The position numbers were made by a program, and so were the translations under genes. A DNA stretch of 64,000 bases from Psammoneis japonica (lineage: Eukaryota): NCBI GenBank assembly GCA_008632985.1, contig QPGO01000086.1, positions 124,001-188,000 on the forward strand. The letters are read 5' to 3'. The notes beneath the pieces are model-generated. The model was given only the letters and a program-made list of their open reading frames with translations. It ran no database searches and had not been told where the DNA came from. This document shows positions 10,082 to 64,000 of this stretch, piece by piece. Every line of letters starts with the position of its first letter. Position 1 is the stretch's first letter.

Positions 10082-11949
10082 GTTGTCTGCAGCAACGTTG
10101 ATCACTGTCGAACGCGTAAAACTCTGTGCAGTTCTGTATGTTCCTTCGTACGTACCCACACTGTTCCGCCAAAACCGTGCAGTGTCAGTGCACGTTANAT
10201 TTAACAGGTTGTGAGATGCATCTCCCCCAAGCGTGTGCATGCTCAACTTGTTGAACAGACAAGTCAATGTTGCCAAAAGGAAATCTTCTGAGGTTCCTTG
10301 TGCTGCTCCTCATTCCACTTGTTCTGGTGTGGTTTGTCTGGAGGAAGCTCTCAAGAAACTCCAATCTTGTGATGTGACAGGTGCCTGCTGATCCACAACA
10401 CAATTTGTGTGAACCAGATGAGTCACTCGAAAGAGTGAGACAAAAGAAGGTTGGTGAGATCAGTGACAAGTGCCCGCTCATTTCCAAAATGTCGCCCAAC
10501 TGACCACACGTCAGAGGTCAGAGGATCCAAAGCATTTTCTCTTTGACAGATCTGCTTCTGGGTCTCTCACATTTTAAACTCATTCCAGATGATCCAGCAA
10601 ATGTTCTGCCTTCATGTGGTCCATGTTTGTCAGAGTCATTGTGGCCTTGTGGCTCGTCAGTCTGCTTGGGACTCTTGGCATCACTGCCACTCACTTCTGG
10701 GCTCTCAATGTCCTGTGACTTGCAAACACATGGACACGCGCACTTGCCACCATTGCTGCAATCAATCAAATCATCGAGTGCACATGCAGCTCACAAACAC
10801 TCATCACAAAGTGCTCCACATGGGTGTGATGACGTTGCTCTTTTTTTGTTGTCATTTTCCAACATCCAAGCCGGTCCATGCCCCAGCTGTTGACTGTCTC
10901 TGGAGTCCGATCCAGAGGCGACACATCAGCACAGTGCCGCTTCTCAAGAATGAGTGGTCATTGGGTCTCATGGCAGAAAAGTGCTGCTGCCAAGTTCCTG
11001 GCCTCACAAACAACTCCTTTGACATCCACCACAAGCCCAAATTGCTCTCGTTTGTTCTCAGAATCAACACCCTGGAGTTTCATGAGGGGTCCACAGACCC
11101 CACTCTCACTCTCATGCCAAAGGCAGGAAAACTGACATTCAACTTGTGATGCAACATGTTTGTGCCACACTTGTCAAAGCACAGACAGTCTTTTCCTCTT
11201 GCTCTGGCCCACCACTTGGGTGCCAAATGCTGCTTGTTGATTGGAGATCAACCCTTTGTGCAAGTGTGCTTGTTCTGTCTCTGAAATCAGCTCCCAGGAC
11301 CTGCCAAATGCCGTGGTCTTTTGTGCAGCAGTGACATGTTCCACTGCCAGAGATGCAATCTCTTTGTTGCCCATGATGGAGAACACTGGTGTGGCAGCTT
11401 TGGGATGTTCAAGCACTTCCCAACTTGTGCTCATTTCTGTCAGGGTCTCTGACAGCTTCTTCATTTTGTGGCACCTCTGCAGCCACAGGGCTCTCCACTG
11501 ACCTTGTCCTCCCATTCCCCACATTGGGAACACTGGCACAGATCCTTGACCTTTGTTCTCTCATGTGAGCTCTTGACTTCACATGTGTCAGTGGCCATTG
11601 CAATGAATTTAAAGGCTGGGGTGGAATGTCATCCCCTCCTCACACACTGCTCTCCCACAATCCTGAGCCCTTGCATGTGCTCCTTGTTGTGCTGTGCAAA
11701 TCTCGCATGCTCTTGCAGCTTTGCAAGGTTGTGGAACCTGCCTCAATGGTCCCACAGCTGCCAGTGGGTGTGGACATCATTGCTGCTTTGCAGCTCAAAT
11801 TTGCAGCTGTCAATCACCTTGCATGGTTGCTCTGACATCACAGTTGTCAGTTGTCTCCACCATCAATTGACTGCAGCCAGAGATTGTGGTTGTTGTTGAG
11901 CTGTTCAGTTTGGTGTGTCAGGGATTTTTCTCCCACGTGCATCAGAAAT

Positions 11950-13700
11950 TCTCATCTGACATCACAAAGAACAGGTCTCATGCCTGTTGTGCCTGAAGTG
12001 AACAGCCTGTGATGGCCTGTTTTAACTTCCAAAACTTCTTGCCTTGTGATGGCTTGGTCATGGTCTCCAAGCATGTTGTCAGCAGAACAATGCCATGCTT
12101 GTGAGTTGCCCTTCTTGGTCTGATCGGCAACAAAGAAATGGCAAATGTTGAGTGCTTGTGACCAGCACTTGCTGGCCCTCTTGCAACCACCAGTCTCCAG
12201 TGGGATGGTGCTCTTGTTGTCCTGGCGCTGGATGTTCTTGTTGATTGGGGGTGCCCTTGGTGTTCCATGAACAGCTTGGTCCACAGTGTCACAGCAGTCA
12301 TGGCATTGTCAACTCCAACAAGCTCAGCTTCTGTGATGCTTTGGGTGCTGAGCTGCTGGCGGTGCTTTGAGATGGCCTGCACTGCTTCTCACCCATTGTC
12401 ATGACTCCTCTGGTGTGGCTCTTGAAATTGGGATGCACTGCAAATGATGCATTCCACATGCTGCCACTGCCTTGACAACTCAGAGGTCTTTTGTGCTCAA
12501 CTCATGGACTTGTCTTCATTTCTCATCTGGCTTGCGCACTTGAGACAATGGACTGGCTTCTCCCAATCCTTGTTGGCGGGAGCTCTCACTCATGTGCACA
12601 ACACAGTGATGGTGGGATGCACATCTGCTTGCCCTCTCTTGGACAGGAACAGCCCGTTGGCCACTCACATGTGGAAGGTCTGACAAGCCTTCACCTCTGA
12701 CAATGTTTTCCCACCAGCAGTGTCAAATGTCTTCTCTCTGGCTGGTGTCATGGCAGTGTCCATGCTCTTTGTCTTTTCCGGAAATTGATCAATCACCCTG
12801 CAAACATGGTCAACCACATTGACTCTCACTTTGTCCTTCTGTCTGAAGTCTGGGGTCATGCCAAGACAGTCATGTCTCTTCCCTCACGCAGAGATGACTT
12901 GCCACCATGGCTGTGCCACACATCTCTTGTTCAGCCAGCTCAGAAACTTGTTGTTTGCTTTTGGGTTCTTGTGGCTTGACAGCAAGTTGTGCACATGAGA
13001 TCTGACAGTGTTGCTGTTTGACCACACAATTGGCAATGCATGGATTGCATGGGGGGTTGAACTTAAAAACCACATCTTCTCCAAGTCTTTGTAGAGTTTG
13101 TTTTGTGCCACAACACAGCCATGACAAGCACACCACAGATGGCTCTGATGACTTGGATGCAATGCACTCTTTTCCATTTCTCTCTGAGACCACACAAGGC
13201 TTGCACAGGTTGGGCACTCATGCAATTTTCATCATGATCCAGTCTTTGTCTTCTCCAGACCCCAGCATCACAGTCTGTGCAAATGTGCTTGCAGATTGTC
13301 AGCACTCATTTTGTTGCATCCTTTGTGGGTGTTGACAATCATCATCATCAATGTCCCTTCCAGGGATGCAGCAGGGCAGGCCAACTCATCTTTTCCAGCC
13401 ACGGTCAGGCCAGTTTGCCATTTTGGTGGGCCATTCACCCTTTTGTGTGACTGTCTTGTTTCTTGGCAAGGAACATCAAGGCTGCCATGGCCTTGGTCCT
13501 TTCAGTCAAGGTGACATCCTTGGCTGATGCTGGCGCTGAGCATGCTCAGTTGCGCGATTGTTCAATCTCTTCTCTGAGGCATCATGCGCCTTCTGGCCAA
13601 TCACTTTGAGGCCTTCATGGAGCAAATGTTGCTGGGCAAAACACATGTGCCCTCTCCACTCCAGAGCAGTCAGTTGTCAATCTCACACATGAAGAACAAA
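11950..13700 (-). mobile_element. Degraded Ty1/Copia (CoDi-like) RT-RNase H remnant; limits approximate
   Basis: STQSITEAELVGVDN..LWTKLFMEHQG, QDNKSTIPLE, HCSADNMLGD, FNPPCNPCIAN resemble Copia RNase H and RT motifs. Confidence 0.8.
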
Positions 13701-15123
13701 AGTGCCATTGCTCTCCCTGCTTCAGACCCACACTTGATGTTGTCCTTCAGATTGGGGCTCACATGGTCGCTGCACTCATGCTTGCATCACTTTTTCACCA
13801 CTTTGCTGGCTTCTGCCACTCCTCCTGCAAATCAAACTTTCTTCTCCATGTGTTTGTGCGACTTCATGTCAAAGGATGCACTGCTTCTTGGGGTTCTGCC
13901 AGGTGCGTGGCTCTTGCTTCTTCCTCCAATCATTGCACTTCCCATCTCTGTTGTGCTCCACAGAAATGGATCACCATCACACTGTTGGAGGAGAGTTTCC
14001 AGGCCTGTTTTTGCCATGGAAATCACAAGAGAGTGTCAGTGTGGACCCAGAGAAAAATTTGAAAGGCTGTTGTGAAGGATGCAAAGTGGGAGGACACATG
14101 CTGTCCTGTTTGACAAGCGGTTGACTCTGCTTTTGTTTAATTTTCATGTGATGCCTCGGAGGAAAGTGGATCTTGATGAGCCCTGCAAAACACCACAACC
14201 AATCTCTGGCAGCTCCTTTTGTCCCAAGAAGCCAAGCACCACTGCCATCAATGATTGGATGTCCAAGGATGCAGAGCTGCCACAGAGGTGGATGAGAGCA
14301 CAGAGAGGATGGACCTGATGAAACGAGTGTGTGGCCAGTGCACATTGCATCCAGCAAACAAGGAGATTGTGGTTGGTGATGACAACACTGGGGGAGCTTT
14401 TTGTGACAACAAGCCGCACCCTCCAAACTTGGTTGCAATGCATGCCAGTGTCCAGACAGGGCTTGGTGTCCTGCAAACAGGGAACAATTTTGGGGACAAC
14501 ATCAATCTTTTGAATTGGCGGGCGGCAATTGCAATGGCTTGATGACAGCTGGCAAGAGTTCAGTGGAGGTTGTTGATGAGACCACCCTGCTTGTGCCAAA
14601 AAGACTTGGTTCTGCTCTGAACTCTGAACTGAGTGGAGAAGACATTGTGTCATTTGAGCAAGCTGCAGCAGATGCACTCAACAAGGGAGTGTGTGATGCG
14701 CGAGCAGGTTTGGGTTGGTGCCACCATGCGTGCATCATGTGGATGACAACATGTGTGCAGACATGTCAGACACCACCCAAATTTGTGGCTGCACTTGCTG
14801 TTTTTCACCAGGGTGAAGCACGGTGAAATTCAGGAAAAATCATGCAAAACATGAGCCATTTGGCCAAATTTGGAGCTAAAAAAGCAGCAACCGGGGCCAC
14901 CCTGGACTTTCCCGCCAAAACCACAAGCAGTGGTGTGTGTCAGAGCACATTGACTCAACAATGGCAAACAACACCAATCATTCTGATTAGTTTTGCTTTT
15001 GTTTGAGAGTGATCTCATCTGCACTGGCACTCATTTCGGTGGTGCCAGCAGGACGTTGCTGGATGTTGGTGGGCATTGCTGCATTCTGGCTGGCAACAAA
15101 ATGCATGAGCGAAGAGTGTTTTT

Positions 15124-16356
15124 GTGTGTGACGGCAGGCTCATCAGGCAACCCAAGAAGCAGGATGAGTTGTTGCTGGCCACCCAGAAGCATCCCAACAA
15201 TGAGATTGTGTTTTGTCCATGGGGCTCAAAAGGAAGTGAGAAAAGCAGTCTTGACGTGCTCCAGCTCCAGGTGGGACCTCACACTGCTGAGCTGTGTGAC
15301 ATCAACAGTTTTTTGGATCATGCTGCATGTCACACATGCAGAAAGGTGCGTGACTTTTGTGAAAATGTGTGTCATTTTGCGGCACACGTGTTGGGCAATC
15401 CGTCCAACAACTTTTGACATTTTTTGTCACAGCACAATTCTACAATGTCTTAAGAATTGCATGGGGCAGGTGCATTTGCAAAAATGTCAAGTGGCAAGAG
15501 GCGCAATTGTGCCACAAACTTGGCCATTTGTTTGATGTTGAAGACAAACACATCCATCAATTAAATTCTTGCACTGCGGAGCTCACACGCAGAACTCTGT
15601 GGGCCCAATGTCATGTGGAGTCCCACCTGGGACTGGAGCCCGTCTCTTGTGCGACATGCCTCAATGGGTTGACCAGGTGCAATCGAAACTAAAATGTCAA
15701 AAAAGTCTGCCAACGATGCTTCAGCGGAGCTTGTGGAGGAAGATGTGTTTGCAGCATGTTGGGTTCAACCCATTGTGGTCATTTCCCTGGAGCCAAGATG
15801 CAATGGCAAGGTTTTGGATGCTGTTCTCACGATGTGTAAAATCCTGTCCTGCAAAAGCAGCTGGAAGATGTGCAGATTTTTGGCAAATCTGTCATGTTTG
15901 AGAGTGGCAATTGACTTGTCAATTCACGTGCTCGACCTCCGATGTGTTGGGGTCCACAGCAGCAATTTCTCCAACAAAGAGGCCCTGGATTACATGACTG
16001 AGTGGGTGCATTCTTTTTCCAACAAAAGGCACAGAAACCAAACAGCACGGCATGTTGTTGAGGTTTTTGATGGACATGTGCTGACACTTCAAAGGGCATG
16101 CATGCTTCTTTGGGAAGGAAAGCCTGGTGATGAGCAGGATCTCAATGCTCGAATGAAAAAAGCAAATGAACTGGAAATGGAGAAAGCTGCCAATGGTTGG
16201 ATGTTGGGTTCACTTGGCCCTTCCTGTGACACAGCAGCGGTTGAAGAGCTTGTTGCTGTGTTGTTGAAGGGACCTCAGAATGTTGAAGTGCCGCTGTCCC
16301 CAAGATGCGTGGGCTCTTCAACACTGGTGCAGGATGCCATCCTCTTGTTGCGCTGA
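15124..16356 (+). pseudogene. Degraded P-loop ATPase-like gene interrupted by a MITE
   Basis: Walker-A-like GSKGSEKSSL immediately before the MITE; the same frame resumes at 15649 and, after one TGA, joins the 15694-16356 ORF. Confidence 0.45.
15253..15644. mobile_element. MITE family A, heavily mutated copy
   Basis: TIRs GACGTGCTCCAG..AGGTGGGAC / GTCCCACCT..CTGGAGCCCGTC; TSD TCTT (15249-52, 15645-48); aligns with 55278-55667. Confidence 0.9.
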
Positions 16357-17469
16357 TCCATTTGAAACCAAAGTGTCCTTGAGGGGGAAAGCAATTGCAA
16401 CTGCACTTTCTAAGAAATCACACATGCTGGCTGGCAATGCCAGATTTAAGACCAGAAAATTGAGTGTCGCCCAACACGGGCATGGGCCCCTCTCTTGGCA
16501 AACAACAATTCATTGTTTCAAATTCTGCACTCATGCTCAAAGCCCCAGCAGCCAGGGTGTGTGCACTGCTGGAAGAAGATGGCCGGTCAATTTGCCAATC
16601 CCCAGTGCTTCAGGCGGGGCACATGCTGGGTGCTGCTGATGAGCTTTGCTCATGGTCTCATCCTGAAAGAGATGGGCCACAACACCACTGCTGCAGAGCA
16701 GTCGTCAGGAGAGCGGGAAGCTGTGCCCCCTCCCGTGCTTTTGCCATTGTGTTCTCCCTCTGTGCACATCTTGCTGCTGCCAAATCAGATCTCACACAGG
16801 CAGCAAAAACCAAATTCTTTCACAAAATCTGTGTTTGGTCAGTTTCTGCTTTGTGATTTTCAGCATGAGAAGGGAGAAGGAGGCTGCTGGGCACACTGTG
16901 GAGTTGAGACATGCTGCGCTTTGATGCATGATTTCCAACCTCCAGCAGCCCCAAACCATGACCTGACCACCACAACTTGCTGTTGCACACATGCTGCATG
17001 TGCAGCACTGTTAAAAATGAGAGTGAAATGACCAAAAGTTTGCAACAACAGCAGTGGCAAATCAACAACAGCCCACCAACAATGTCAGTCAATGGGCACA
17101 GTGACTTTTGAGAAACAAATTGATGCAGGCCCCAAAAAAGGAAGAGCTGAGTGACTCTGATCACTTCACTAAAAATCTGCACACATTTGAAACACAATGT
17201 TCACTGTGAATTGCTCTGCAGGTTCTTGACCCCACTTGTCAACAATGATCAAAATCAAAAACACAAGAGGGACAAAATGTTTGCCCATCACAGCAAAACA
17301 TGCTTCACCACAGCTTGCAAAAACACCTGCAATTGAGCATCAAGCTGAGACAATTTGGAAGCTGGTTTGCACACAAAAAATGGGAACCCCCCCCCCTCGC
17401 CACTTGATTTTGGGTGAGACTGTGCACAAAACTCCAAGAACGAATGACTCTTTGGGCTGTCACCCCACT

Positions 17470-18400
17470 GCTGCACACTTTGTCATTGACAGCTGTTGTG
17501 AGACACTCACAGCAACTTTGCAATTGACACCTTCTCTCATTTTTTTGTCTGTGTGTCATGTCATGGGCCAGCTTCTCCACTCCTCTGCTCTCACCACCCC
17601 CTGCACCAAGATCCTTGTGAAATGAGCAGTTCTCATTTGAATTTGCCACCCCATTTGATGGCAGCTCTGTTTGTGACCAGCAGCTCCATCATTGGGGTCA
17701 ATTTGGCAGCACTCTAAGAAGAAAGCCGCTTGCTTGCTTGCCAGAAATGGAGAAACACACCACCTCAGAAACAGAAAAATGCCATGGCTCAGGGGCTCAG
17801 AATCCTGGCTTTGCTGGCTCTGAGCATCACTGTGAAGAGAAAGAGTTTGTCAAGTCACCCATGATTCCTGATTTTCGCTGACATGCCAAAGCTGTGATGT
17901 GCTCATGAGTTCAAGGTGATGAAGGAGGCTGAATTGTGTGCAATTGTTGCTCCTCATGTGTGTTGTGCTCCTGAAGCTTCATCTAAAAAAGAAAACATTG
18001 TTCAGGAAAGGGCACCACAGAATGTTCTGGGAGGTGCAGTTGTGAAAGCTCTCCTCAGACCCAATGTGCTTTTTGGATGTTTTTGTCTGCACGGCACAGA
18101 GAGCGAGAGGTGTTTGACCCATGCTGTTTGAAGACTTGCAATGCCAGATGCTAGCATGGCATTGGTTGGTGGCACATTTTGAGCTGCAGGTCAGAGAGCA
18201 ATGGCACCAGCCACAGCAACAATTTGGAGAAAGAAATCAAGGTGTGCAGCCCTGCTTCCTTCAGCCAACGGGCACGCGATTGTGAGTCAGAAGCTGTGGG
18301 TGGCTGTGGCTCCCTGGCTGCTGTGCGCAGATCGCAAACCAGCTGCTGAAGATGTGATGGTTTTTGTTTGGATGGGTGTTGACTTCACTTGATTTGGTGC
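17470..18400 (+). pseudogene. Degraded duplicate of the proline dehydrogenase upstream region and 5' CDS
   Basis: Shares blocks with ~25145-25900, e.g. TTGACACCTTCTC, CAGAAATGGAGAAACAC, AGTTTGTCAAGTCACCCAT, AAGCTCTCCTCAGA, TTGAAGACTTGC. Confidence 0.85.
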
Positions 18401-18813
18401 CAGGTTGTGGTGACTTGTGACTCTGTCAATTTTCTCCAACACGTGTGACTGAAATCCAGCTTCGAACACCTGCCATGTGGGTGTGTGAGCAAACAGAAGG
18501 ACGCACGGTGTGTCACATTGTCGCGCGCGCGCTGCTTTGTGCCTTTTTGTTCCAGAGCAACACTGCAGCGACAACCATTGGAGGAAAACCTTTGTGTCAA
18601 ACAAAGGAAGTAAATGAGAATAGATGAGCAGACAAGAGAGCTTGTGGAAGAGATTGGAAGCGTTGATCTCTTAGGAGTAGAAGTGAACGTCGAGTGGAGC
18701 CTCGAAACATTCTCAATTATTTATTTCCCCGCTGATACAACAGCATTGTAGGAGTGCTGTGCGATCAACGGCAACAGCATCTCGTTTATTCTTTTCTTTT
18801 GACTACTATCGCC

Positions 18814-19902
18814 ATGTCGCCAAAGATTAAAATAACAGTGGAGGGCGTTGGTGGTGTGAAACTGAGTAACGATGACGAGTTCGATAAGTGGCTCAACAAG
18901 AAAAATGTCGAGTGCTTGCGCGACAGCGAACGGGATGAAGTTGTAGGCTTCGCATCGCTTGAGAATGGTGGCAAGTACACAGTAGGTGCACCTAAGACAG
19001 AGTCTGATTTGAACAGAATGTCTGTTGAGCGATTAGAGAAGATTGCTGCCTTTGCAGAATCTGAGATGGAGGATAGAACCAAAAACAAGAGCATGTCGGA
19101 GGCCTCTGCAGACTGGGCGGACTCAATTCTTGCTGCTTATGGTGTCAAGCATGTCAGGAAGAAAGAGGTAGTTGATGCCATCGGCTCTTTTAAAGATCCT
19201 CCGCCATACGAATGGAACAAGGGCGAACATGGAGGCACCCCGGGGGCTCTTGAGTGGCTGAAAGACAACTTGTTGGGATCGAGTACCGGTAGTCCTTACG
19301 ATTTGAAGGTTGTTACTGGTGCCAAACTTCCAAAGGTGAAAGGAAATCGCAAAAGTGCCACGGGAAAGACTGATATTCTAATAGGAAAATCAAAAGACAT
19401 CAACAAAGGTTCGACTTTTGACTTCGCCATGGGAGTTATTGAACTCAAGACAAACAAGTGCCCCTTGAAAGTTTGGCAAAATCTGCTGGAGCTGTTGTCC
19501 TTATCTACGGCAAGCGCCTTCAAGAGAGCCGTTGTCCTCCTTGCGACCGACTGTAATGCAAAGTGGGAACTTTTCTATTTTTCATATGCCCACACAATAA
19601 CATCGAAAGTCTACGACCATGGCAGCAAGGCCTGGGATGACTTCTTGCAACTGCTCAATTCTGCGAGTGATTGCGATTACGTCGACAGAAATAGTTTGCG
19701 GTTTTCATCATTGCCGCAAGTGGGTGAGCAAAGTTTGGAAGGATTTGATATGTCAGACAGGGACAAGAAGAAAGCAAAAGCTGAAGAAGATGAAGCCATG
19801 TTGGAACACTTTGCCGACAGAATGTCTGATATCTATGGCGAACGTCCAGTTGTTCCTTGGTGGGCACGTGCGAATGCCAGGATCCCTGATTACTATGTTT
19901 AG
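18814..19902 (+). CDS. Crinkler-like protein with a putative PD-(D/E)xK (REase-fold) domain
   Basis: Intact intronless ORF from ATG 18814; GKTDILI..GVIELKT..QNLLEL..VVLLATD..W pattern. Confidence 0.6.
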   Translation: MSPKIKITVEGVGGVKLSNDDEFDKWLNKKNVECLRDSERDEVVGFASLENGGKYTVGAPKTESDLNRMSVERLEKIAAFAESEMEDRTKNKSMSEASADWADSILAAYGVKHVRKKEVVDAIGSFKDPPPYEWNKGEHGGTPGALEWLKDNLLGSSTGSPYDLKVVTGAKLPKVKGNRKSATGKTDILIGKSKDINKGSTFDFAMGVIELKTNKCPLKVWQNLLELLSLSTASAFKRAVVLLATDCNAKWELFYFSYAHTITSKVYDHGSKAWDDFLQLLNSASDCDYVDRNSLRFSSLPQVGEQSLEGFDMSDRDKKKAKAEEDEAMLEHFADRMSDIYGERPVVPWWARANARIPDYYV

Positions 19903-20730
19903 ATATTGTTTGTTGGAATAATGAATCAAGCAAGTCAAAATGAGCACTTGTATGCAACTCAGGGTGCATGCGCCTTGGATGTTGTGGCTCACGACAGCTA
20001 CAGGCAAGACCAAGGCTGAGCATATGTTCGTGTGCTCCATGCCGTGTTATCACCGGAACGTTTCCTTTGGTACGTTAGTGGTGAATGTCGCCGAATAATG
20101 GGAAGGCGCTCGGGGCTCGCTGATTGGTTGTGGAAGTCATTGAAGAGTGAAAACACAAACATTCATATATTTGCTCTTCTCCTTACTGGATATCAAGTTT
20201 AGTTATTCAATACTACCCCGAAGGACAAAGGGGAATTCTTGAAGGCTGTTTACAATTTTGCAGAAATTCTATTCGAGAAAGGACAGACCAGTAACCTTCC
20301 AATTGACCAAGTTGAATGGTAATGCCACGACTCCAAATACTCTACCGAAACAAGCTGATCACAAAGTCATAAGTTTCGTGAACCCATCGTTTGCAGACGT
20401 CGCTTTGAGAGAAAACCTGGCTGTTGCTGTCGTGCCGGATGATCCAAACTGCATGAGCATCAAATTCTAGTCGAAAGAGTCAACGTCAGGTAGACCGTCA
20501 AAGAAACTCAGACCCCGGAAATCTTTGTCCCGTGCTTCCGTGTAAATGTTGTTGCCACCAAATCGGATGTTACGTCAGCGACAACACATCCTTTTGTTAC
20601 ATCTGTGTTTGACGAGTTTCAGCGCTACTCTGTAGCTACTTAGGGTCCTATTTTGGAAAGGCTGTTTCCATTCCCGGTGTGGAATCGATCGACGCGGCTC
20701 CCCGGAATCATGTTGTACGTACCGTGTAGT

Positions 20731-20848
20731 CTCTATTAGCTCTAGCTCTCTACTACTAGAGTAGAGAGTAGCTACTAAGCTAGAGCTACTCTAGCTACTA
20801 CTAGAGCTAGCTAGTGGCTACTCTTAGAGTAGAGAGAGAGTAGAGAGT
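20731..20848. repeat. Low-complexity TAG/CTA/AGAG tract
   Basis: ...ctctagctctctactactagagtagagagtagctactaagctagagc...; similar tracts at 461-499 and 22855-22891. Confidence 0.85.
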
Positions 20849-20890
20849 CGTTGTTTCCGCCACCCACAACCCAAAACCGCGACCTAACCA

Positions 20891-22700: not shown

Positions 22701-23384
22701 TTGCTATGAAACAGGATTTGTTGTTGAGAGAGGGTCAATTCGCCCCTTCATCAAAACCCGATTTATTGTCACGATAGTGTTTTGAACTCAGCAGCATGAC
22801 CCACTCGACTCAAATTTTTTGGTACAGCATTTTTTAGCTCCTGCGGCCCCTGCTCTCTAGCTAGCTCTCTAGAGTAGCTAGAGAGTAGTAGACTTCGGCC
22901 CCCCCGCTAGAGACAGAAATACACAAGATACGAGCATTGCTGGTCTCCGACTCTTTAAACCAATGTCTTGTGAGAATGTAAAATAGGCATGTGTTGTTGA
23001 AAGTGCGAAGGACGAATTTTCGTGATTGATCTAACTAACGCGACCCTCAAGTTGGGCCCTCTACTCTCTAGAGAGAGTAGTGTAATGTGTGTTCCTTGTT
23101 GAAAACGGGGTTTTGTGATTTACACGTCAAATCACGGGTTGGGCAGTAAAGCTGATGGTACTACGCGGCTATGCTAATGGTCCTTTGTCGAGCACACGCA
23201 TAAAGAACAGAGGTTTTTTAGTTTATTATTCAGTGCGGAGCAAATTTAAGGGTCCGGCCATGTACGTGTTTCCCTCATCATGCGAATAGACTAAGGCATT
23301 GACTGTTATGTTTGCAGTTTTTTCCCTCTCGTGCTGGACCTTAATTGAACTTCAGTGCTTCAGAGTGCCTTTTCATGTGGTTCC

Positions 23385-52920: not shown

Positions 52921-55900
52921 AAACAAAACAAAACCAAACTTCTATATTTTAAGTGCTGCTACGCTTCCACCCTGCAACTCCGGCAACAAGCTAACCCACA
53001 CTCCCAGCACACAATTGGTGCGGCAGGAGCAAACAGCAATCAGCCGAGATCGGCATCACCCGAGGGTGACGCCGCGCCAAAGCAACTTGCAATGGTTCTG
53101 GTGCCTCGTGCAGCCAATCGTTTGGCTTCCCGCATGCTCGATTTAAAGACTGGTTTGAACATTGCCAGCCAGCTGCGAATCCGATGAGTTGAATGCGTCA
53201 AATGATCTTCCACCGAATCCAACAAGAGCGCCTTGTCTCTCGCAAGGCAATCATCCGTGCGAGAATAAATCGCTTTAACCTCTGCTTCCGCGTCTCTCCT
53301 TTGAGAGGACTTTCTAGTTTCCGAATCGTGTCCGTGCACAGCGTCATTGTGAGCACCCCACAGGTCCCACCACTGCTCCCATGTAAAGTTCCCAATGGTT
53401 GCCGCCCAATCCAAACGTTTCTGTTGGTCCGAAAGGGTCCGACAAATGCCGCTCGACGTAAGACAGGAGGTTTGTGTCACACTCCATTGGACCGAAAAAC
53501 GACCATCAAACAACTGACGCCAACCCATTTCTCCTTGGGAATGGAAAACGGAGATGACGCTGTGATGAAATTGCTCAGAGTAAAGAAGCTCATCTCGAAA
53601 CCATGCTTCAACAGCCGACATGATCAAGTCTCGTAAGGAGGGAGACGTGTGAACATCATTGCACTTCTTGCGCAGGCCTTGTAAAAATTTTCTGCGCCAG
53701 GCCTCATTGTGAGGACAACGGAGAATGTGGTCTCTGTCTTCCATGGGGTCCTGACAGTGTGCACAACAGTCCGGACGTGTCGGATTGCATCTGTGCACGA
53801 TTTTGTCAGTGGGTGGAAGATCTTGAACCAGCTTGACAGCACCAACTTTTCGACGAATGTTCCGTGACATCAGTTTCGCATGAACGTCCCAATCGATCGA
53901 CGCGCAGACTTCGTCGGACCAACCATGTTTCTCTTTCATGCAGTCGACCAGCGCGGGACTCGATGCCTGATGTCGCAGGACCGGCTTGCATTTGGACGAG
54001 ACAGTGGCTCCTTGGAGGATCAGATTTGCTCGACAGTGAGGCATGCGGGGGGCTTCAAGAGCATCGCCAGAAAATTGGCCTTGGAATTGTCCTGCTGGTC
54101 TGTCAGCCCGCGTGTTCAACTTCGCCGCCAAGGATGAAGACTCCACAGGAAGAGTGTCATCTTGGTGACCTTTCACCCAATGAATCTCTACGACAGGACA
54201 CTGCAGTTCATCAGTGCTGACCTCGGACACTTGTCGTAGGGAGTGAAAAATTTCATTGACAATGTCCCAGTCTGGTGAGAGGGTGTCAGCAATGTGATGC
54301 CGCCATTGAAAGTCATCGGCTCCTTGAGCATCATCTGCTTCGGGAGGAGAAGGAATCACCTGGAAATTCGAGATGTTGCGAATGAGTGAAGAATTGTCGC
54401 AATGCAAGTCAGCGCCTCTTAAAGATGAAGAACAACATTCTGTCAATCGGGCCAGGAAACGGAGAAAGGACAGCATGCCGCATGCTTCAGCTCGGCAAGA
54501 AGATGGGCAAAAACCAAAAACCGGACCTGCACAATCCACAAGAGGTGTCCCATCGATTGTGATCGTCCAACCAAAGGCACCTCAAAATTGAAGGACCGAG
54601 CCGTCGCCACCCGCTGACGCTTGGTGGGTCGCAAAGATGTCGGCGATTTCAAATGTTGACCGGTGCAGGGACGATTCCCAACAAGATAGAGACCGCAGCA
54701 TAGAGAGAAAATCGTTGGGGACGGGAGGCAAAGTTGGCAAGAAGACTGGAGTGCCAGAAGACCGAATTCGCCAATGACCATTTCTGGTGGCATCCACAAG
54801 CACCGGGGATGCCGCAGGGGAAAGATCTGGGACAGTTTCCAAGGCCGCAATCGAGTCAGCATGACCGTGTTTCACCGGAAACATTTGAAATCCAGCATCC
54901 GAATGGATGCACAAGTGATCTTCGGAGGGTTCGTGGCATGCCACGTGTGACATTCGCATTTCCGTAGCCGGCATGAGCCATTGACCTGGGGGATCTCGGA
55001 GATCAAAAGAACCGTCCTTGCAAAATGAGGAACAAGCTCTTCGCCACTGTTTCCAAGCTCGAGCAGACGGGCGTTGTTGTTCAACGGGGTTCAGAGTGCT
55101 GCGGCTGCTGAAAAGGGACGATCGGCCGTCGACTTTAAAGGAGTCAAGCGAGAGGCCATCTGGAAGGGTGGTGTCCGACAGTGTCAGTGCGTTAAGACAC
55201 AACCGACAGCAGTTGACCCACCTGATCTCCCGATCACTGAAGGCGCCCGATTCAAGTGCGACGTCCACAACACATTGGACGCGTTCCAGGTCTAGGTGGG
55301 ACCTCGCACTACTGAACTGTGACATCGACAGTTTTTTGAGTCTCGTCGTATGTCGCGCACGTAGATTTCTACGTGATTTTTTCGACATTTTGTGTCATTT
55401 TACGGCACACTTGTTGAGCGATCCGTCCAACAACTTTTGACATTTTTTGTTACAGCGCGATTCTACAATGTCTTAAGAATCGCATGGGGCAGGCGAAGTT
55501 GCAAAAACGTCGAGTGGTAAGAGGCATAATTGCACCACAAACTTGGCCGTTTATTTGATGTTGAAGACAAACATGTCCATTGATGAAATTCTCGCACTGC
55601 GGAGCTCGCACGTAGAATTCTACGGGCCCAATGTCACACGGAGTCCCACCTGGGGCTGGAACGCGTCATTGGTCGTCATCTCGCTGTAGCGGGAGGACGC
55701 CAGGCTCGTCACAGTCAATGGAAGCATCAATCCTTGCCAAGAAAGATCGGAGAGACACAAACCAGCGTGATTCTGAATGAGGCAACTTGGCATGAACGTC
55801 TTTTAGAAAACCAACTCCCGCTCCGATCTGCAGCTGAATCCATGACACTGCAATGCAAGACAGAGCTTGAGGTTGTCCTGTCCCGTGCCAGTGACGAAGA

Positions 55901-58900
55901 AACTGCAGAACTTGAGCAACTCCTTGTTCGACGTCTAAGGACCTGAAACCGCCACCTCCCAGGGAATGTGGTCCAAACAGAACATCTCGTTTCGAATTTC
56001 GATTGCACCCGCATTTGGCAAAAATCGCACGCGTGGCCTTTCTTTGTACCTCCAACAACTCTTTCTCCTTGAAATGGGCATTTGGGAGAACGCAGGTGGT
56101 CGAGGACAGGCAGCAGGCAAAATGATGGGTCCAAGCCTCGTGTCTGTCAAGGGGGCAAGAACGAAGAAACAAGGCAACACCATCGCTCTTCTGTTTGAGG
56201 GCCGTGTGTTGAGTCTTTTGCGCACCTGCGGGAGCTTTGTGATGACCAAGTGTCTTGTGAGCAGAATGAGCAGATGGTTGTTTGCTAGACCGTGTCGCAG
56301 TTCGGTCAGCAGAAGAGATTTCAATGTCGATCTCCTCATTGTGTGGTCGCAGGTGTGGTTCCCCGTCATCTGTGAACATCCACTCGATTGCATGGAAGGA
56401 GCACTTGGGCAGTTCTAACTCGTGTCCAGCTGCATTCAAAAGGTCACACCACAGCTGATTATCCTCCTGCATCTTTAGAGCCAATTCCAGAATGCAAGGT
56501 TGAGGAGACGCACAAAAGGCGTTCACCTGTTTGGGTGCATCATCCACGCATCCACGATTGAACATCTGCAGAGAAAGAGAGCGGTCAGGGGTCTCGAAAC
56601 AGGCACCGTGTGCACGTTGATCGAAAATCTGAAACAAACTGTCACAGATTTGGTTCCAGTAGAACGGGGAGTTTCCACTGCCCTGTCCAGCACTGTAAAT
56701 CAGAAAGTCATCGGAATGGGAAAAAGAACCTTGAGACAGGCCGAGCACCGCACGCAACCAGCATCGAGCCTCGTGAAGAGTCGAGTTGGCAACCTGGGTA
56801 ACTTCTTTGGGCATTCCGTTGCTGCGGCTTTCAATTGCCACCAAAGCAGGGACATTTCTGTCGCAGCACGAAGTGCAATCGTCATCACTGTGAATGGCAG
56901 ACTTGCGTGCAGCTCTGCTGATCTCCAGCATGAGTTCTTCAAGGCACACGGGAGTGTTGGCATTTAAGAAAGCGCGAGCACCGTAGATCCCAGAATTGTG
57001 TGGTCGACGTTGCTCCATGTTTTGAGCTGGAGCACGCCACTTGATGCTCGAGATTAATTGAAAGTCGGCTTCGCATGTGTGGATGACTCGAAGACGATGA
57101 ATCTTGTTGTTGCCCAGCTCTTTGAAAATCATGACATTTACGACATCTTGCCAACGGTGAAACGAATGCCCCCAGCGGAGAGCGCAATTTAGCAAATTCA
57201 ACCTGATTTGAATGAGGGTGTGTTGAACTTCATCGAGGGCCTCACGATCAACAGCAGGATTGCCTTCTGAATCCGCAGCCTCAGAAAATCGATGAGGAGC
57301 ATGCATTGCCTTCCAATGACCGAGATGGAGTCCAGAACATGTGGACGTAGCGGCAGTTTCTGTCCAACGTTTTATTTTCCCTTCAAGGTCTGAGGCAGAA
57401 AGGAGGTTTGGCACTGACGCTGGTGACCGTTGTCGCAAGTGTTTGATGAAAAGAGCTGTTGCTTCATTCAAAGCAGACGTGTCACACTCGCCGTTGAGAA
57501 TGAGATCCGCCATGATCGTGTCACCTTCACAACCGAGGTCCACCGACAGTGGAGGGACTGTTGGGGGTGTGCCGTGTGCTTGACCAAAGTGTTTCTGATT
57601 CCGTTGACGGAGAGCAGTTGCTGCGTCTTCCGGAGCATCGACAGTGACCCAGTCTTGACATTCTTTCAGAGGAATGGAGGGATTGCGAGGAACTTGTACA
57701 CTCTGCACACCAGTGTCCTTCTGGGTGCGACAAGAATCTATCTTCTCAAACAATTTCTTCATTTCTTCTGCCTTGCGGATGTCACGCAACACAGTGGCCT
57801 GCTTGCGGGAAGCCTTGGTGTTTTCTAAATCGAGTGCTGCTGTCTTTTCTGACATCTCCCATTCACGGTGGACCACGCTGTCGGCAGCCAAGCGCTTGCA
57901 GTCTTCCTGAGCAGCACGTAACTCTTGTTGACACTCTTGCAAAGTCTCCGGAATGGAAAAGGATCCACTGAGTTTATCCCGAATCGACCGAATCTGTGAG
58001 ATGTGGTCTAATTTTGTCCGCATCATTGATGCGAGGCGTGAAAAGATGTGCACCCTACATCTCAAATCTGCCAGTTCTACCGACCAGTCTGGTTCGCGGT
58101 GAGAGCGGCATTTCTTGGCGGCAGCGAGGGAGAGCTGGGTAAGATCACGGTCTGGGCGTTCTGCCAACGCATGATTTGGAGTTTCGAGGTCAATTGACTG
58201 ACGCGACCTCTCCAATGCTGAGTGGCTCTGAATCATGGGGCCGATGGCTTGAAGACAAGTGGTGGTCTGAGGTTTGGATGTTGCCTGAAGATCCCGGAAA
58301 GATGCCTCAGGTAGATCGACGGTGGGATTGCCAAAAAGGGCCACCGTGTCAAAATCCACAAAGCAAGCACGATGATCAGACACAACTCTACAGCCAAAAG
58401 CTTCGCATCCGCCGAACCGTGCCGCAGCGAGAGCACCAGGTGAGGCGAGTGCGCAGTCGAGGCGCTTGGAACCCCTTGTGTGTGCAGTGAAGTCGTTGTC
58501 GCCCACAATGTCAAACAGAACGTCGGATGAATCAAAACGTTGTGCAACAGCAGCCAAAGAGTCTGTGTCGAAGTTGAAATCAGTGTTAAAATCGCCAAAG
58601 ATGATCACCTCCCTGTGCGGTTCTGCCACAAAGTCCTGCAAAACACGGGATGAGTTGGCACAAAAGGCTTTCCTGGGGTCAAGGATCTGACGGCCTTGTT
58701 GTCGGAGAAGAGACATTTGCTGAGCATGAGCTGTTGTTTTCCCCGGGTGTTGTTGGTTTTTAGCGCAAACTCGACAGCAAGAGACAAACATCACTTGGCG
58801 TCCGTTCCTGCCGTCGAAAACTTGAATAGACCACCGACCAAGTGGGTCTGATTCTTGAGTCCGAAAACGTGCTGATGTCGAATTGCAAGACAACAAAGCC

Positions 58901-61352
58901 GTGCCACCTGGTTTGCATTGAGCAGTGAAGGTGGCAGAGCTGGTCGAGAAAGTGGATCGCCCATGGTGCAGAGATTTGGAGACAGCAGAATGGCAAACAG
59001 AGAGAATGTCAAATTGGATGGTGTCCAGACACACTTCAGAGATGCCAATGACGTCGGCTTGGATTTCCGAAGCAATTTGACAGCACTCATTTACATCCCC
59101 GCCGCGCTTGTCGAACTTGCAACCATTGGTGTTAAAGGCGCACAGACGTGTGTGATGTGGAAGCTTGGGTCGAAGTGCATCGCCCACAGGTTCATTGGTC
59201 TTGAGGCGAGAAAAATCGATCCGGCGATCAGCAGGAGGATGACAGCTGCGTCCGTCGAGAATTTGCTGCCATGCGAGAGAGGGATCATCAGTCGAAATCG
59301 CACCACTCATGGTTGGGCCATGCTCCTCCGAAGAGAAGACTGAGGCTTAGAGCACTGCATTAACTTGAGGTTCGGTTGAAAGGAGAAAGGCCGACATCTG
59401 GAGGTCCGACGAAAAATGGAAGTTAAAGTGAGAGGTGAGTGGAGCCGAGCAACAATGTCGGGAGGATGCCCAATTTCTTGAGGGGGTGGAGGCGGCGAGA
59501 TCCAACCCCTGCCTGAAAATCCGATTCCCTGTCTTTGTTGTCCCCAGGGCGCTCGGGAGTTTCCATGTGGTTGGGGCGTTTTCTGGCGGAGCTCTGAGAC
59601 GGTTGACTTGCTTGAAGGAGTTTAACTGTTTGGTTCATTTGGTCCTGCATGGCGGCCAGTTGCTGGGAGCATTGTGACTGAAGTGCGGCCATGTCTTGAG
59701 TGTGTTGTTTGTTGAACGTGTTGTTCAAAGCTTCCACATCCTTGGAATGCTGTTGGCGGAGTTCGGCCAGGGCCTGATCGTTCTCATGTTGCATCTGGGA
59801 CAACGTCTGTTGCACTTCCGCCATCTGAGCTGAAGCAAGAGAGGAGCTCGACGTAGATTGAGCAGCTTGAGCATAAGACAATTGGGGAGACGGCATGCCA
59901 GGGCATCCAGCACAACCAAGTTTCGACGGAGATTGGGAGGAAAGGGGGGTGAAGATCTGAGGTGGAACCGCAGAACCTCGCGCAGGACCTCGACCGGGGA
60001 ATCCTCGTCCTGCATGTCCGCAACCAGGATGAGATTGCGATGGAGGGTGATGATGCGCACTGGGAGCATGAGTGTCTGTCAAAGGAGAAACGTCCGAAAA
60101 GGTCAGGGATTCGAGACTGCGAATGCTCGCAGAGACGATGGATTTGCTGGTCTCCGACGGTTCGTCAAAAACGCCTGAGACTTGAGGATGATCTGGGAAG
60201 GGAGGAGTCGGGTGAGATTCTTCCGGCAGATCTGGAATGAGATTCATAACACACGTGGAAATTGCGGCACGTGCTGTCTTGAAATCCACTCGATTGACAA
60301 GAACATTGTACCTCCCGTCGGCGGAGTTAGAGGCGCAAATGTCCTGCACGCCTTTCAAGGCCCTGACATTTTGTTCGAAGTAGAACATCACATCTGGGGA
60401 AGCACACAAGAGCGGGACGATGTATGTGTTTTCATTGCGGCGGGCTTGAGTTTTGACAGCGTTGTAGAAGGCCAAGGGAGAGAGGCAACGGGTCTTGGCC
60501 ATCACGATGTGGGTCGGGAGTTTGTCAGATGCGTGCAACAAGACTCTCCCGGCAGTGCGACACTCATCATTTTGAACCTCAATGGCAAAAGTCGTTGTGC
60601 GAATGGGAGTGGCGAGTTTGTCATTATCGGCTCGGATTGACGCAGGTGCCAGACGAAACTTTGGCATCTTGGTCTTGAATTCACCCAAATCTCCAAGAAA
60701 CTTTTTGGTGGCGTCGTCGACTGGAGCATGTTTCGCAGCGGTGGCAATGCAACAGGCCGGTGTCGCCGCACCAATCACTGATTCATTCCAGGCGTGTCGT
60801 TTCATGCCCATGTTGTTCAGATCCAAAATGCTTTGAACATGAGGATGAGAGCGAATTTCGCGAAGCGGTGACTTTGTAAGAATGCGATGACATGAGCGAT
60901 GGGCAACCGGGCGTTTTTCACCACTGCGAGCAGTGGAGATGACGAAGTGACGTTCGTGCTGAAGGGAGGAAATCCAATCAGCCACATTGATTTGCGTGAT
61001 TCGGTTGTTGTGGTTATCAAGGATTTGCACGTCTTTATGACACGTGAAAAGAATCTGCTGTAAGACTTGCAAATGGGCGGTGACAAGAGTCATCGGCTTG
61101 CATGTCGCTGCAGGGCCACGAATTTCGAAGCGAAGAGCAATCTCTTCGAACTGACGCTCTTTCGGTTTAGAAGACGACTCAAGAGAAGTCTGATCGACGG
61201 TAATGTCATCTGCCATGTTGGCGTTGTGGATGGGAGGAGGGGCATGGCTGCCGTCAATGACGGAAGGAGACGCCATGGTGATCGGCTGTTCTACGGGGAG
61301 CCTGGTGCTGAAAACACGCAGGTACATTCAATGCCAGCAATCGCAGAATTAT
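52921..61352 (-). mobile_element. Non-LTR retrotransposon 2 (APE-RT-RNase H, Ambal-like): ORF1 61327-59423, ORF2 59310-53040 interrupted by a MITE
   Basis: TSD GCTGTCGTTAG (52907-17, 61353-63); (GTTTT)n 3' tail; FGDFN, SDHR, GQGSGNSP, GCVDD, DGSV, WVKGHQD, CAHC..HILRC. Confidence 0.92.
55278..55667. mobile_element. MITE family A, lightly mutated copy nested in LINE 2 ORF2
   Basis: ~25-bp TIR GACGCGTTCCAG....AGGTGGGAC; TSD ATTG; excision restores the frame QRDDDQ-CVVDVAL. Confidence 0.92.
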
Positions 61353-61449
61353 GCTGTCGTTAGCGCAGTTTAATCGCCATAAGACCGCGACGCAGGACAC
61401 CTCCGCCGTCTTTGTTCTATCGCAGAAAGAATTCGACACGGCACGTGGC

Positions 61450-64000
61450 ATGAATGACCAACCACCAAACGCCGTGAATCCTGGCAATGGGCATCCGCCC
61501 GGGCAGCCACCGCAACCACCGCCGGGTGCACCGCCACCGCCGGTGCACCCCGTGCCACAAGCGGGGCAACCAGCCCAGCCACCACCGGGTGCACCCACTG
61601 ACCAAGCACCGCAAGGAGGGCCGGGCGTGCAGCCACAAGCAGCTGCCCAACCGGCGCCGCCAGCCGGCGCAGCCCAGGTTCCCCAACAAGGGAACCCCAG
61701 GACCCACCAAGATTTTTTCGCGATGAATGCCAAGGACCCCCACCAAGGGGTCCACACGGAGCCCATGATTGACTTTGCTGCCCGTGCACAGGGGGCCTCC
61801 CATTGCAACCCACAAGCCCCAGCACAGAGGGTGTCAGCGGCATCCGAGCACAACGTGCCGATGGCGTTGGCGCACCTCTGCCGCGCGCAGGGCGCACCAG
61901 ATGAAGGGTCGATTCAGGTGCACCACCGCGTTTCAACCCACCCGACTGCCGTTGTCGGGCCTGCACAGCCGTGGGACGGAAATGCCTGTGCCCTAGCCGG
62001 GGACCTGGTTGCAAACCAGTTCACAGCAGTCCCGTGTCCACCAGAGGAGATGGGCCTCGCCGCCGCTGGCACATTTGTCCTGGACGACACGGGGATGGCT
62101 GCGGAGATCACGGCGCACCCTGAAGGGTTGGTGGGCCCCGCGGACCCGAGTGCAGCAAACACGGCAGAAGTGCGTGCGCGATTCACGATGCACGTTCCGT
62201 TCGCCTGCATGAACATGCTTCTCCCAGGGGGTCTGTCCCCGAAGCAAGCTTTCACACGAATTCTTGGAGCGGCTGCGGCCAGGAACGAGGTCGACGCAAC
62301 ACGTCCTTTGTTGGACCATCTCAAGGTCGCGTGCACCGCCACGGCGGGGGACCCCCACGCATCGGCCGTTGCACGAGAGTGGCCAACCATGCCCCAGCCC
62401 CCGAACGCGGCGCTCATGCGGCACTTCGACCAGAAGGTCAATTTCGACCTGCCGGGGCGTGACAAGCTTGTGCTTCCGCCCCATCACATCGCACCAGTGG
62501 TGAGGGCAATCGATGGACTCACGACCGAGCAGTGTCAGACGCACATTGACGCGCAGGCACGCCAGCGAGCCGCCGAGCAAGGAAAGACGCCGGCACAAGC
62601 GTTCGGCGATCCAGGCATGTACAAACTTGTGAGACTTTGCCAAGTGTACACCGAAGATCAGCTGCCACCCATGTGGCCACGCCTCGCGCGGGCTTCCAAG
62701 GCGGGACGCATCACTGAGGTCCAGAACGCAGTTGATGAGACGCGCCGCGCCTTGGGAGCACGTTTCCGCATCCCGGTCACTGTGAGTTTGGCATCAAAAT
62801 TGATGAGCCTCAACTTTGCTGGAGACAACAGAGATGACCCTGCCCAAGGAGTCAACCCGCACCAATTTGGTCTCACGACCCCAGAGCAAGCGCAGCAAAT
62901 CACTCACCGTGCTGCCATGTGCCGCCAGATCCACGGAGGTGACAGTCGGCCCAGTCTCACCGATGCGATGGTGCTGGAAACGCCTGACGACGCACGCGTG
63001 ACCACCACCATCGAATTGCTCCAACATTGTTTGGAGAGCACACGTGTCGTGCTCGCAACACTGCTGGGCACGGGACACCCTGTGGTCCAGTGCTTCACGG
63101 ATTCCCGGCAGGACCTGGACATGTGCGCCGAGGACCTGGCTGTGGAGTGCTCCCGGAATCCAACACCAGCAGCAGACATCCAGCGTCATGTGCAGGTGGA
63201 GCTCATGTCTTGGTTTTGGCTGCAGGAGACAGCCTGCAACACCGCGGTCCCATTCCATGTGCACCGAGTGGTGGGCGATGCTTCAAAGGGAAACGATTTG
63301 TGGCGTCACATGCTGCCCCCTACAATTGCATTGGTTTCCGGGAGCGTGCCCGCCCCAACTGCTACGACTCCCTCGTTGGCCCAGCCCGTGGGTGGTGCCG
63401 TGCAAAATCCACGCCCAGGCGTGCCGGGCGACAACACGCCAGTGCGCAACCCCCAATGCGACGAATGCTTCAATGCCGTCCGCGATCATCCCAACATTGG
63501 GTCACGGGAGGTAAAGTGGTGTTGCACTCAGAATGGGGTCGCACTGCCAGTCGACGCGCAAGGAAACCCACGGTGCCTCCCGCACCACTTGAAAGGGCAG
63601 CACAACTCAAACTGCGGGTGTGCAGCGGACCATCACAACAACCATGCGGAGAGCGACCAGGCAAACCTCCTCACGTGGGCAATGGAGCATTGGAAGACCG
63701 AGTGGGTCTTCGGCAACGGCCCGAGCTTGGGGACTCTGGGCCGAGAGCCTTTTCAGCTGCCACCGGCATCGTTGGCAGTGCTGCCACCCCCGCAGGCGGA
63801 GAGATCCACAGACAGCAATGGCCGCAGCACCTCACGTGCGCAGGCTGTTGCAGACGCTGTACAGACTGACAAACTGGGCAAGCGAACACTGCGTGACACA
63901 CAATTGCTGCGTCTTAGAGGACCAAGTCACTTGTTGCGTCGCCGCAGCGGCAGAGGGGACTGGGGACCGTTGCACCGCACACGCAAGCACCCAGCCCACA
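61450..64000 (+). mobile_element. Probable gag-like ORF and start of pol of a tyrosine-recombinase (DIRS/Ngaro-like) retroelement; open to the window end
   Basis: Read by hand: 850 codons with no stop, absent from the ORF track. P/Q-rich N-terminus, C/H cluster RCLPHHLKGQHNSNCGCAADH near 63570-63633, TpA depleted. Family assignment is from recalled similarity only. Confidence 0.5.

Follow-up and report, generated by a model that had tools for sequence, protein, structure and literature searches.

Mobile elements in a stretch of 64,000 nucleotides of the Psammoneis japonica genome assembly (GCA_008632985.1, contig QPGO01000086.1, positions 124,001 to 188,000; hereafter the window) appear, with a probability of about 0.8, to have been hypermutated at the level of DNA, through conversion of TpA dinucleotides to TpG or CpA on both strands. 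On this reading the conversion was restricted to inserted mobile elements and the DNA they carried, within a diatom-like nuclear genome. Changes were almost exclusively A>G preceded by T or T>C followed by A, with CpG transitions added in two of the four affected blocks (D1 and D2). The process hit a DNA transposon, a host-gene fragment and retroelement-like open reading frames (ORFs), within sharp limits and with no spread to the neighbouring gene. An initial annotation, made from the sequence alone, had proposed a domain-targeted, double-stranded A:T>G:C mutator that inactivates repeats. The polarised comparisons below support a two-strand A:T>G:C mutation confined to inserted elements. The annotation also knew of no description of such a process. 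This is superseded by a preprint of Mettrop et al. (bioRxiv, 14 Apr 2026; 10.64898/2026.01.13.699255), the available text of which reports exactly the same signature in Bigelowiella natans, with de novo rates.

TpA was nearly absent from four blocks, which the initial annotation had located correctly to within ~150 bp:

D1, 10203-18610, no strand assigned: 8408 bp, 21 TpA, TpA observed/expected ratio (O/E) 0.038, CpG O/E 0.20, TpG and CpA O/E 1.83
D2, 20921-22637, no strand assigned: 1717 bp, 5 TpA, TpA O/E 0.041, CpG O/E 0.21
D3, 43433-49464, minus strand: 6032 bp, 41 TpA, TpA O/E 0.12, CpG O/E 0.81
D4, 52993-64000: 11008 bp, 99 TpA, TpA O/E 0.17, CpG O/E 0.87
Rest of the window: 36830 bp, 1593 TpA, TpA O/E 0.62

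In intervals of 1 kb the two sets did not overlap, the host minimum being 25 TpA (n=144) and the block maximum 19 (n=95). Block borders were sharp and were resolved to ~100 bp. At the left border of D1 the final TpA outside lay at 10202 and the following one not until 10575, and an ordinary ORF began 126 bp beyond the right border. A single N stands at 10198, four bases left of the D1 border, and the assembly may be uncertain at this junction between host and mutated DNA.

Measured against host density, D1 had lost 705 TpA and CpG and gained 712 TpG and CpA. The corresponding losses and gains were 144 and 124 in D2, 229 and 164 in D3, and 280 and 296 in D4. The O/E of TpG and CpA was 1.69-1.83 in D1 and D2 and 1.30-1.47 in D3 and D4, and the G+C content was 0.52 in D3, 0.54 in D4 and 0.47 in host DNA. 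D1 and D2, which are older than D3 and D4, had lost ~80% of their CpG, a loss not seen in D3 and D4. Since D3 and D4 lost 80-90% of their TpA with CpG intact, the TpA process is much faster than CpG decay and separable from it.

Tyrosine made up 0-0.9% of 12 ORFs within the blocks and 1.8-4.5% of 10 host ORFs, while an ORF straddling the D3 border had 1.9%. The initial annotation had singled out two tyrosine-poor ORFs, which it assigned to long interspersed nuclear elements. The tyrosine counts stood, with three in the first ORF, which measures 1226 amino acids stop to stop (1214 in the initial annotation), and none in ORF 44936-46138, of 400 amino acids. In the long D4 ORF (55666-59346) the numbers of TpA observed and expected were 3/74, 19/60 and 12/79 in the three codon phases. 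As TpA was depleted in all three, mutation is indicated rather than selection on codons or amino acids. On the sense strand of this ORF, TG occurred 305 times against 230 expected and CA 334 times against 237.

Comparisons with unmutated relatives

Three comparisons allowed the changes to be polarised. The first made use of a fragment of a host gene and its parent:

17606-18297, plus strand: mutated copy of the 5′ part of the host proline dehydrogenase gene, in D1, 70% identity to 25249-25871
25249-25871, plus strand: unmutated parent, from the region of exon 1 of the proline dehydrogenase gene, with ordinary TpA, polarising the changes

The parent gene has a Pfam Pro_dh match in ORF 26183-27115 and is covered over 25187-27290 by spliced contigs from sequencing run X2 (described below). 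All 16 aligned host TpA were changed in the D1 copy (8 to TG, 7 to CA and 1 to CG). Host CpG was turned into TG or CA at 26 of 34 sites and kept at 2, and the remaining dinucleotides were mostly unchanged. Double changes led from host TG to CA in 6 cases and from host CA to TG in 9. Such changes would be expected if TG and CA now and then turned into TA or CG and were soon returned to one or the other of TG and CA. TG replaced TTA sites in 6/7, and the ATA sites (n=6) gave 4 CA, 1 TG and 1 CG.

Two side observations concern the same gene. A 39-bp stretch upstream of it (25067-25105) recurs with 97% identity at 20852-20890, just left of D2, and together with the D1 gene fragment this suggests an old local duplication, later broken by insertions. 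Within the expressed exon of proline dehydrogenase, runs X1 and X2 both have G at 25812 and 25887, where the A in the window belongs to a TpA. The mutated D1 copy has TG at the first of these positions too. The difference may be a common polymorphism or may stem from leakage or conversion involving the two paralogues.

The second comparison was between two copies of a miniature inverted-repeat transposable element (MITE), one of them in the first part of D4 (D4a):

15253-15644, plus strand: mutated copy inside D1, target-site duplication (TSD) TCTT, 3 TpA, 9 CpG
55278-55667, plus strand: unmutated copy inside D4a, TSD ATTG, 14 TpA, 29 CpG

The element is 390 bp long, has 25-nt terminal inverted arms that are 88% complementary, and is flanked by 4-bp target duplications at both copies. 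The summed contig depth of its core was ~26000, against ~55 for single-copy DNA. Being short, with terminal inverted repeats (TIR), TSD and many copies, it is classed as a MITE. The two copies were 82% identical. Of the 14 TpA present in the unmutated copy, 12 carried a difference (A>G in 5 and T>C in 7, a loss of 86%), and 21 transitions were found at its CpG (n=29, a loss of 72%). Elsewhere 30 differences were counted, and ~10% of other sites differ. The polarity is supported by the inverted ends, which agree with each other at CG positions in the D4 copy and disagree in the D1 copy. An excess of substitutions in TA context, which the initial annotation had proposed to look for, was thus present in the gene fragment (16/16) as in the MITE pair (12/14).

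The unmutated MITE had a TpA density of 36 per kb, compared with 8 per kb in the 2-kb flanks on each side. Its presence in the mutated D4a suggests that the action is episodic. Since the MITE is untouched, either the process had stopped in D4 before the insertion or it acts non-continuously inside a marked region.

The third comparison was with protein families. The D4 ORF 55666-59346 had 5954 relatives in a representative library (E<=0.001), the best at 44% identity. Among the best 150 of these the median tyrosine content was 3.3%, and none was below 1%. In columns with tyrosine in at least 70% of 31 full-length relatives (n=8), the D4 ORF has 5 Cys and 3 His. Columns with at least 50% tyrosine (n=19) hold 11 Cys, 3 His, 2 Phe, 1 Trp, 1 Tyr and 1 Asp, and those with at least 30% hold 14 Cys against 4 His. 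In control columns the D4 ORF kept Phe at 13/16 (81%), Trp at 9/9 (100%), Gly at 40/47 (85%) and Asp at 20/26. The peptides in which the initial annotation had read Cys or His in place of Tyr do sit at family-consensus Tyr positions. The base before the Tyr codon gave no clear prediction of Cys or His (A-preceded: 4 Cys, 1 His). A second, unrelated ORF, 61312-63999 in the last part of D4 (D4b), had 0.2% tyrosine, against 1.2-2.4% in its four relatives. Where at least 2 of its 3 closest relatives have Tyr (14 columns), this ORF shows His at 5, Cys at 5 and no Tyr.

When metagenome contigs were first scanned for relatives of the D4 ORF, 53 sequences matched the pattern and none proved to be a relative; a second scan, with alignment, recovered distant relatives only, at 29-44% identity. 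The TpA O/E of related metagenome loci was 0.39-0.85 in 80 of 80. Thus the relatives did not share the poverty in TpA and tyrosine, as the initial annotation had considered they might (0/150 below 1% Tyr; normal TpA at 80/80 loci).

Survival of TpA depended on the flanking bases. The set of residual TpA in D3 and D4 (n=119) excluded the unmutated MITE and a patch at 61.3 kb; contexts were strand-symmetrised, and family loci and host DNA served as baselines. The contexts differed from these baselines (chi-square 83.6, 9 degrees of freedom, p 3e-14). Enrichment among the survivors was 3.3-fold for TTAA, 2.2 for CTAA, 1.6 for GTAA, 0.43 for ATAG and 0.11 for ATAC, and ATAT was absent (0/119). The survivors in D1 and D2 were TTAA in 12 of 26 cases, against 3.1% in host DNA (p 2e-11). 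Ordered by the 3′ neighbour of the adenine, the preference of the process is T >> C ~ G > A. This flanking-base preference explains why Tyr codons (TAT, TAC) were changed to Cys more often than to His.

Block contents and neighbouring genes

The blocks contained the following features:

D1: old composite block of degraded mobile DNA, TpA and CpG both nearly erased
D2, ORF 22191-22700, minus strand: helicase-like remnant at the right edge of D2 (AAA_19, 1.8e-05)
D3, whole block: endonuclease-bearing retroelement-like element, with Exo_endo_phos and Exo_endo_phos_2 in ORF 46033-47247
D4a, 52993-61290, minus strand: second, distantly related retroelement-like element, with Exo_endo_phos in ORF 55666-59346
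61292-61418: patch between D4a and D4b, ~130 bp, 7 TpA
D4b, 61421-64000, plus strand: G+C-rich ORF family without Pfam domains, TpA depleted, running off the window

The initial annotation had counted four unrelated classes of transposable element (TE) besides copies of host genes. This was borne out in part: we recovered two distantly related endonuclease-bearing retroelement-like families, one MITE with TIR and TSD, a helicase-like fragment, one ORF family without Pfam domains and one host-gene fragment, and most of D1 was without a recognisable domain. When the 77 stop-to-stop ORFs of D1 and D2 were scanned with Pfam, all 65 in D1 were without a match at E<=0.01, and D2 gave only the helicase-like remnant and one sub-threshold match.

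The Exo_endo_phos endonuclease was matched at 2.1e-08 and 3.6e-10 in the D3 and D4a elements, and ORF 44936-46138 of D3 aligned to the C-terminal part of the D4 ORF (23% identity, E 1e-08). ORFs of the D4a family are about 1900-2000 amino acids long. Pfam did not find RVT_1 in ORFs of the window or in the intact relatives P0241 and P0244, nor an RNase H match, even in intact members of the D4 family. A PDB profile search for this family returned endonucleases alone and did not confirm a reverse transcriptase. A feature-based Atlas search gave clusters with RVT_1 in 27-52% of members, which is a lead only. Of the two hallmarks of a non-LTR (LINE-like) retrotransposon, an apurinic-type endonuclease and a reverse transcriptase within a single long ORF, the D3 and D4a elements showed the endonuclease. 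The D4 family has an N-terminal Exo_endo_phos endonuclease and conserved motifs and is poorly captured by current profiles, and the Atlas suggests that it is commonest in diatoms. The patch 61292-61418 separates the divergently oriented D4a and D4b, and may be original host DNA or an escaped promoter region.

Host genes in the window were those for tubulin chaperone D (TBCD), beta-tubulin and proline dehydrogenase. The beta-tubulin was 87-92% identical to diatom and other marine sequences. The best matches of TBCD were ~50% identical, and the named matches down to ~38% identity, among those inspected, were all from diatoms (Seminavis, Cylindrotheca, Thalassiosira, Mayamaea, Cyclotella, Skeletonema, Nitzschia, Epithemia and others). 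No identical match, and none from Bigelowiella, was found in these beta-tubulin and TBCD comparisons. Judged from its proteins, the host nuclear genome is diatom-like, and the protein collection contained no sequences from a close relative.

Run X2 carries the label 'DNA?' but has the character of RNA. Missing from its contigs are 23803-24698 and, inside the proline dehydrogenase gene, the 103 bp of 26085-26187, and one contig ends at 29931 and continues as a run of A, giving intron and poly(A) positions of the neighbouring genes. Most of D1 and D2 had no X2 cover, which is not evidence of silence. A 388-amino-acid ORF between D1 and D2 (18736-19902) has normal TpA and Tyr, is covered by X2 contigs and gave no Pfam family above threshold. 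It is apparently a functional gene surviving between two hypermutated blocks.

TA-rich low-complexity DNA (TAGAG-like) lies on both flanks of D2 (20716-20841 and 22823-22990). In one X1 contig (depth 57) D2 is missing, and 20 other letters connect 20774 with 22875. This could be an empty-site allele or a look-alike locus, and the depths misfit a simple heterozygote. Repeats in the part of normal composition included a direct pair 1.2 kb apart (1-404 and 1220-1610, 89%), a tandem duplication of 159 bp (39437-39595 and 39591-39749, 96%) and a self-complementary stretch of 316 bp (37989-38304).

Mechanism and alternatives

We suggest an enzyme that acts on foreign DNA, marked and probably silenced, and there modifies a single base of the T:A pair. 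The leading candidate would be an adenine deaminase of the TadA/ADAT2 kind, making inosine that is copied as G. Its activity would come in bursts, leaving untouched a young MITE inside a mutated element. In D1 and D2, ordinary CpG decay, presumably deamination of 5-methylcytosine (5mC), would have been added on top. Tyr codons would become Cys or His, and TA-ending Leu, Ile and Val codons would become Ser/Pro, Met/Thr and Ala codons or change synonymously. TAA and TAG stops would be removed, and TATA-type promoter elements and AATAAA signals would be destroyed. In-frame TGA would arise only from an existing TAA stop, and no sense codon would turn into a stop. Since no stops arise in this way, the ORFs of dead elements would stay long. 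Thus the many long ORFs across 43-64 kb are not a sign of active elements.

Several points weigh against this interpretation. For the ancestral TpA contexts of the elements, relatives and host DNA give only an approximation. The 80 metagenome loci were retrieved with a bias against mutated relatives, as one of the two patterns required Tyr/Phe. The O/E of TG and CA in D3 and D4 (1.30-1.47) is under the cut-off of 1.52 that the available preprint text uses for CpA+TpG (10.64898/2026.01.13.699255). Among 40 of the 81 differences between the window and run X1 there are only 2 TpA events in the domains and 2 in the flanks, too few to establish current activity. The library type of X1 is unrecorded and the run may come from the sample of the window's assembly, so that it checks base calls and is not an independent isolate. 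A defence role is an interpretation, and a plausible one. Finally, TpA is its own reverse complement, and the sequence cannot separate deamination of A from modification of T.

Accordingly, the same DNA-level process might damage thymine instead. A hydroxylase of the TET/JBP type would make 5-hydroxymethyluracil (5hmU) or a derivative at TpA in silenced DNA, which would mispair with G or be repaired to C. As TpA is palindromic, T>C followed by A would look the same as A>G preceded by T, and the 5hmU of dinoflagellate DNA is enriched at TpA. However, 5hmU is weakly mutagenic. A DNA adenine deaminase also has a precedent in an ADAT2, according to the text available (PMC10354150), and we regard the thymine route as improbable.

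A-to-I hyperediting of element transcripts before reverse transcription, ADAR-like or ADAT-like, would deliver copies that arrive mutated. D3 and D4 are retroelement-like, depletion ends at the element borders, and a U before the edited A is the ADAR preference given in the available preprint text (10.64898/2026.01.13.699255). However, editing of sense RNA predicts TA>TG only. On the sense strand CA was as enriched as TG, and Tyr>His stands beside Tyr>Cys, which argues against editing of RNA or first-strand cDNA on one strand. The MITE copy, of cut-and-paste type, and the host-gene fragment were mutated in place and need no RNA intermediate. TA followed by A is spared and TA followed by T favoured, unlike the 3′-neighbour preference of ADAR, and ADARs are not known outside animals. 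We give RNA editing little chance.

A base-calling or assembly artefact, in which modified bases of silenced DNA (5mC at CpG, another mark at TpA) were miscalled as TG or CA in a long-read assembly, is very unlikely. It would agree with the finding that CpG and TpA both 'become' TG or CA in D1 and D2. However, contigs of X1 had a k-mer depth of ~55 and were as long as 315 kb, values not to be expected of noisy reads, which implies that the X1 reads are accurate. These contigs covered D1 and D2 in pieces of 1.2-2.9 kb, each differing from the window in 3-8 letters, and reproduced both blocks free of TA. Of the 40 differences listed among the 81, 27 lie in D1 or D2. Alternations between CpG, TpG and CpA, in both directions, account for 16 of these 27, which is in favour of an artefact, as is the unrecorded library of X1. 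Two removed a residual TpA and none restored one, and bringing D1 to host density needs ~340 extra TpA. The initial annotation had asked whether accurate reads show TA at the mutated sites, and in these 27 differences they did not. The 390-bp MITE of normal TpA and CpG within D4 argues against a regional error of calling or repair, and the copies differ from their parents by indels and transversions too.

Hardly credible is native composition or selection, either a TA-poor source lineage or selection against TA (for example to avoid TA- or TTAA-targeting transposases or nucleases): the blocks do coincide with foreign elements, and dinucleotide avoidance by selection is known in viruses, but the relatives have normal Tyr (0/150 below 1%) and TpA (80/80 loci at least 0.39), conserved Tyr were replaced at the cost of function, the host-gene copy lost 16/16 TpA, TTAA survived best of all contexts, the opposite of TTAA avoidance, and all codon phases and non-coding parts were equally depleted.

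TpA hypermutation of DNA also admits a wider and more tentative reading, to which we give somewhat less than an even chance. Diatoms, and possibly lineages of stramenopiles, alveolates and rhizarians (SAR) widely, may have a dedicated, episodic editor of double-stranded DNA (dsDNA) that recognises new mobile or viral DNA and rewrites TpA to TpG or CpA to saturation, preferring a 5′ A or 3′ T flank. It would be a defence like repeat-induced point mutation (RIP) of opposite polarity, killing promoters, poly(A) signals and Tyr codons while frames stay open, with an adenine deaminase or a thymine modifier as the candidate. A natural enzyme for A:T to G:C conversion in dsDNA would interest the base-editing field. 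For annotators, long ORFs in such elements are not a sign of activity, and profile-based detection of TEs and viruses will fail there. Diatoms are ecologically dominant, and some are genetically tractable.

Comparison with known systems

RIP of Neurospora and other fungi turns CpA into TpA, lowers G+C and creates stop codons. The process described here is likewise a dinucleotide-specific transition hypermutation of both strands that ruins mobile DNA within sharp limits. Unlike RIP, it destroys TpA, leaves G+C equal or higher, and removes stops so that ORFs stay open. Decay of CpG through 5mC also changed CpG to TpG or CpA in D1 and D2. However, it cannot remove TpA, and D3 and D4 lost TpA without loss of CpG. 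The initial annotation was therefore right to discount both fungal RIP and 5mC decay as the cause of TpA loss. ADAR and APOBEC in animals offer a parallel in deaminase-driven hypermutation of selfish nucleic acids. In contrast to the two-strand signature found here, they act on RNA or single-stranded cDNA and leave a one-strand signature, and APOBEC gives C>T, not A>G.

The closest system is that of B. natans, as described in the available text of the preprint (10.64898/2026.01.13.699255). In mutation-accumulation lines of this species, two integrated viral regions received 231 of the 302 nuclear single-nucleotide mutations. Those in the viral regions were nearly all A>G or T>C, all of these on TpA. 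They arose at ~6e-7 per site and generation, a rate ~1000-fold higher than elsewhere in the genome, with only some lines mutating. TpA-depleted TE genes in B. natans include endonuclease/reverse-transcriptase genes. As the enzyme, the preprint proposes a DNA adenine deaminase resembling ADAT2, with reference to the deamination of A in DNA by the ADAT2 of amphioxus (PMC10354150).

Both systems show A:T>G:C change on TpA only, giving TpG or CpA by strand, in discrete foreign regions of an otherwise normal genome. In both, TpA depletion is coupled to a gain of CpA+TpG in clusters of 1-kb windows, and activity is apparently non-constitutive; the unmutated MITE fits the report that only some lines mutate. 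By the cut-offs of the preprint, D1 and D2 qualify for TpA and for TG/CA, and D3 and D4 for TpA (0.12 and 0.17), with TG/CA at the values given above. Unlike B. natans, a chlorarachniophyte, the host here is diatom-like (a stramenopile). Depletion is near saturation (O/E 0.04-0.17), against 0.45 in the preprint's region of nucleocytoplasmic large DNA virus (NCLDV) origin. The process here hit transposons and a fragment of a host gene, no virus being recognisable among its targets, and it is read from sequence and not from de novo rates.

Beyond the B. natans preprint, we found no other description of TpA hypermutation, and none for diatoms, in a literature search whose coverage lacked most subscription journals; a paper on SPLASH speaks of 'hypermutation' in connection with antibodies only. 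The window thus adds a second, distant lineage to a process that has just been described, and the proposal of a categorically new system is superseded by the preprint (10.64898/2026.01.13.699255). Either the process is old or it has recurred in algal lineages that lie far apart, which allows a comparative search for the gene or genes that track the signature. What is added here to the B. natans account is the CpG co-decay in old blocks, the time-stamp given by the MITE, the consequence that no new stops arise and the flanking-base preference, of which we found no analysis in the available preprint text and which provides a test for candidate enzymes.

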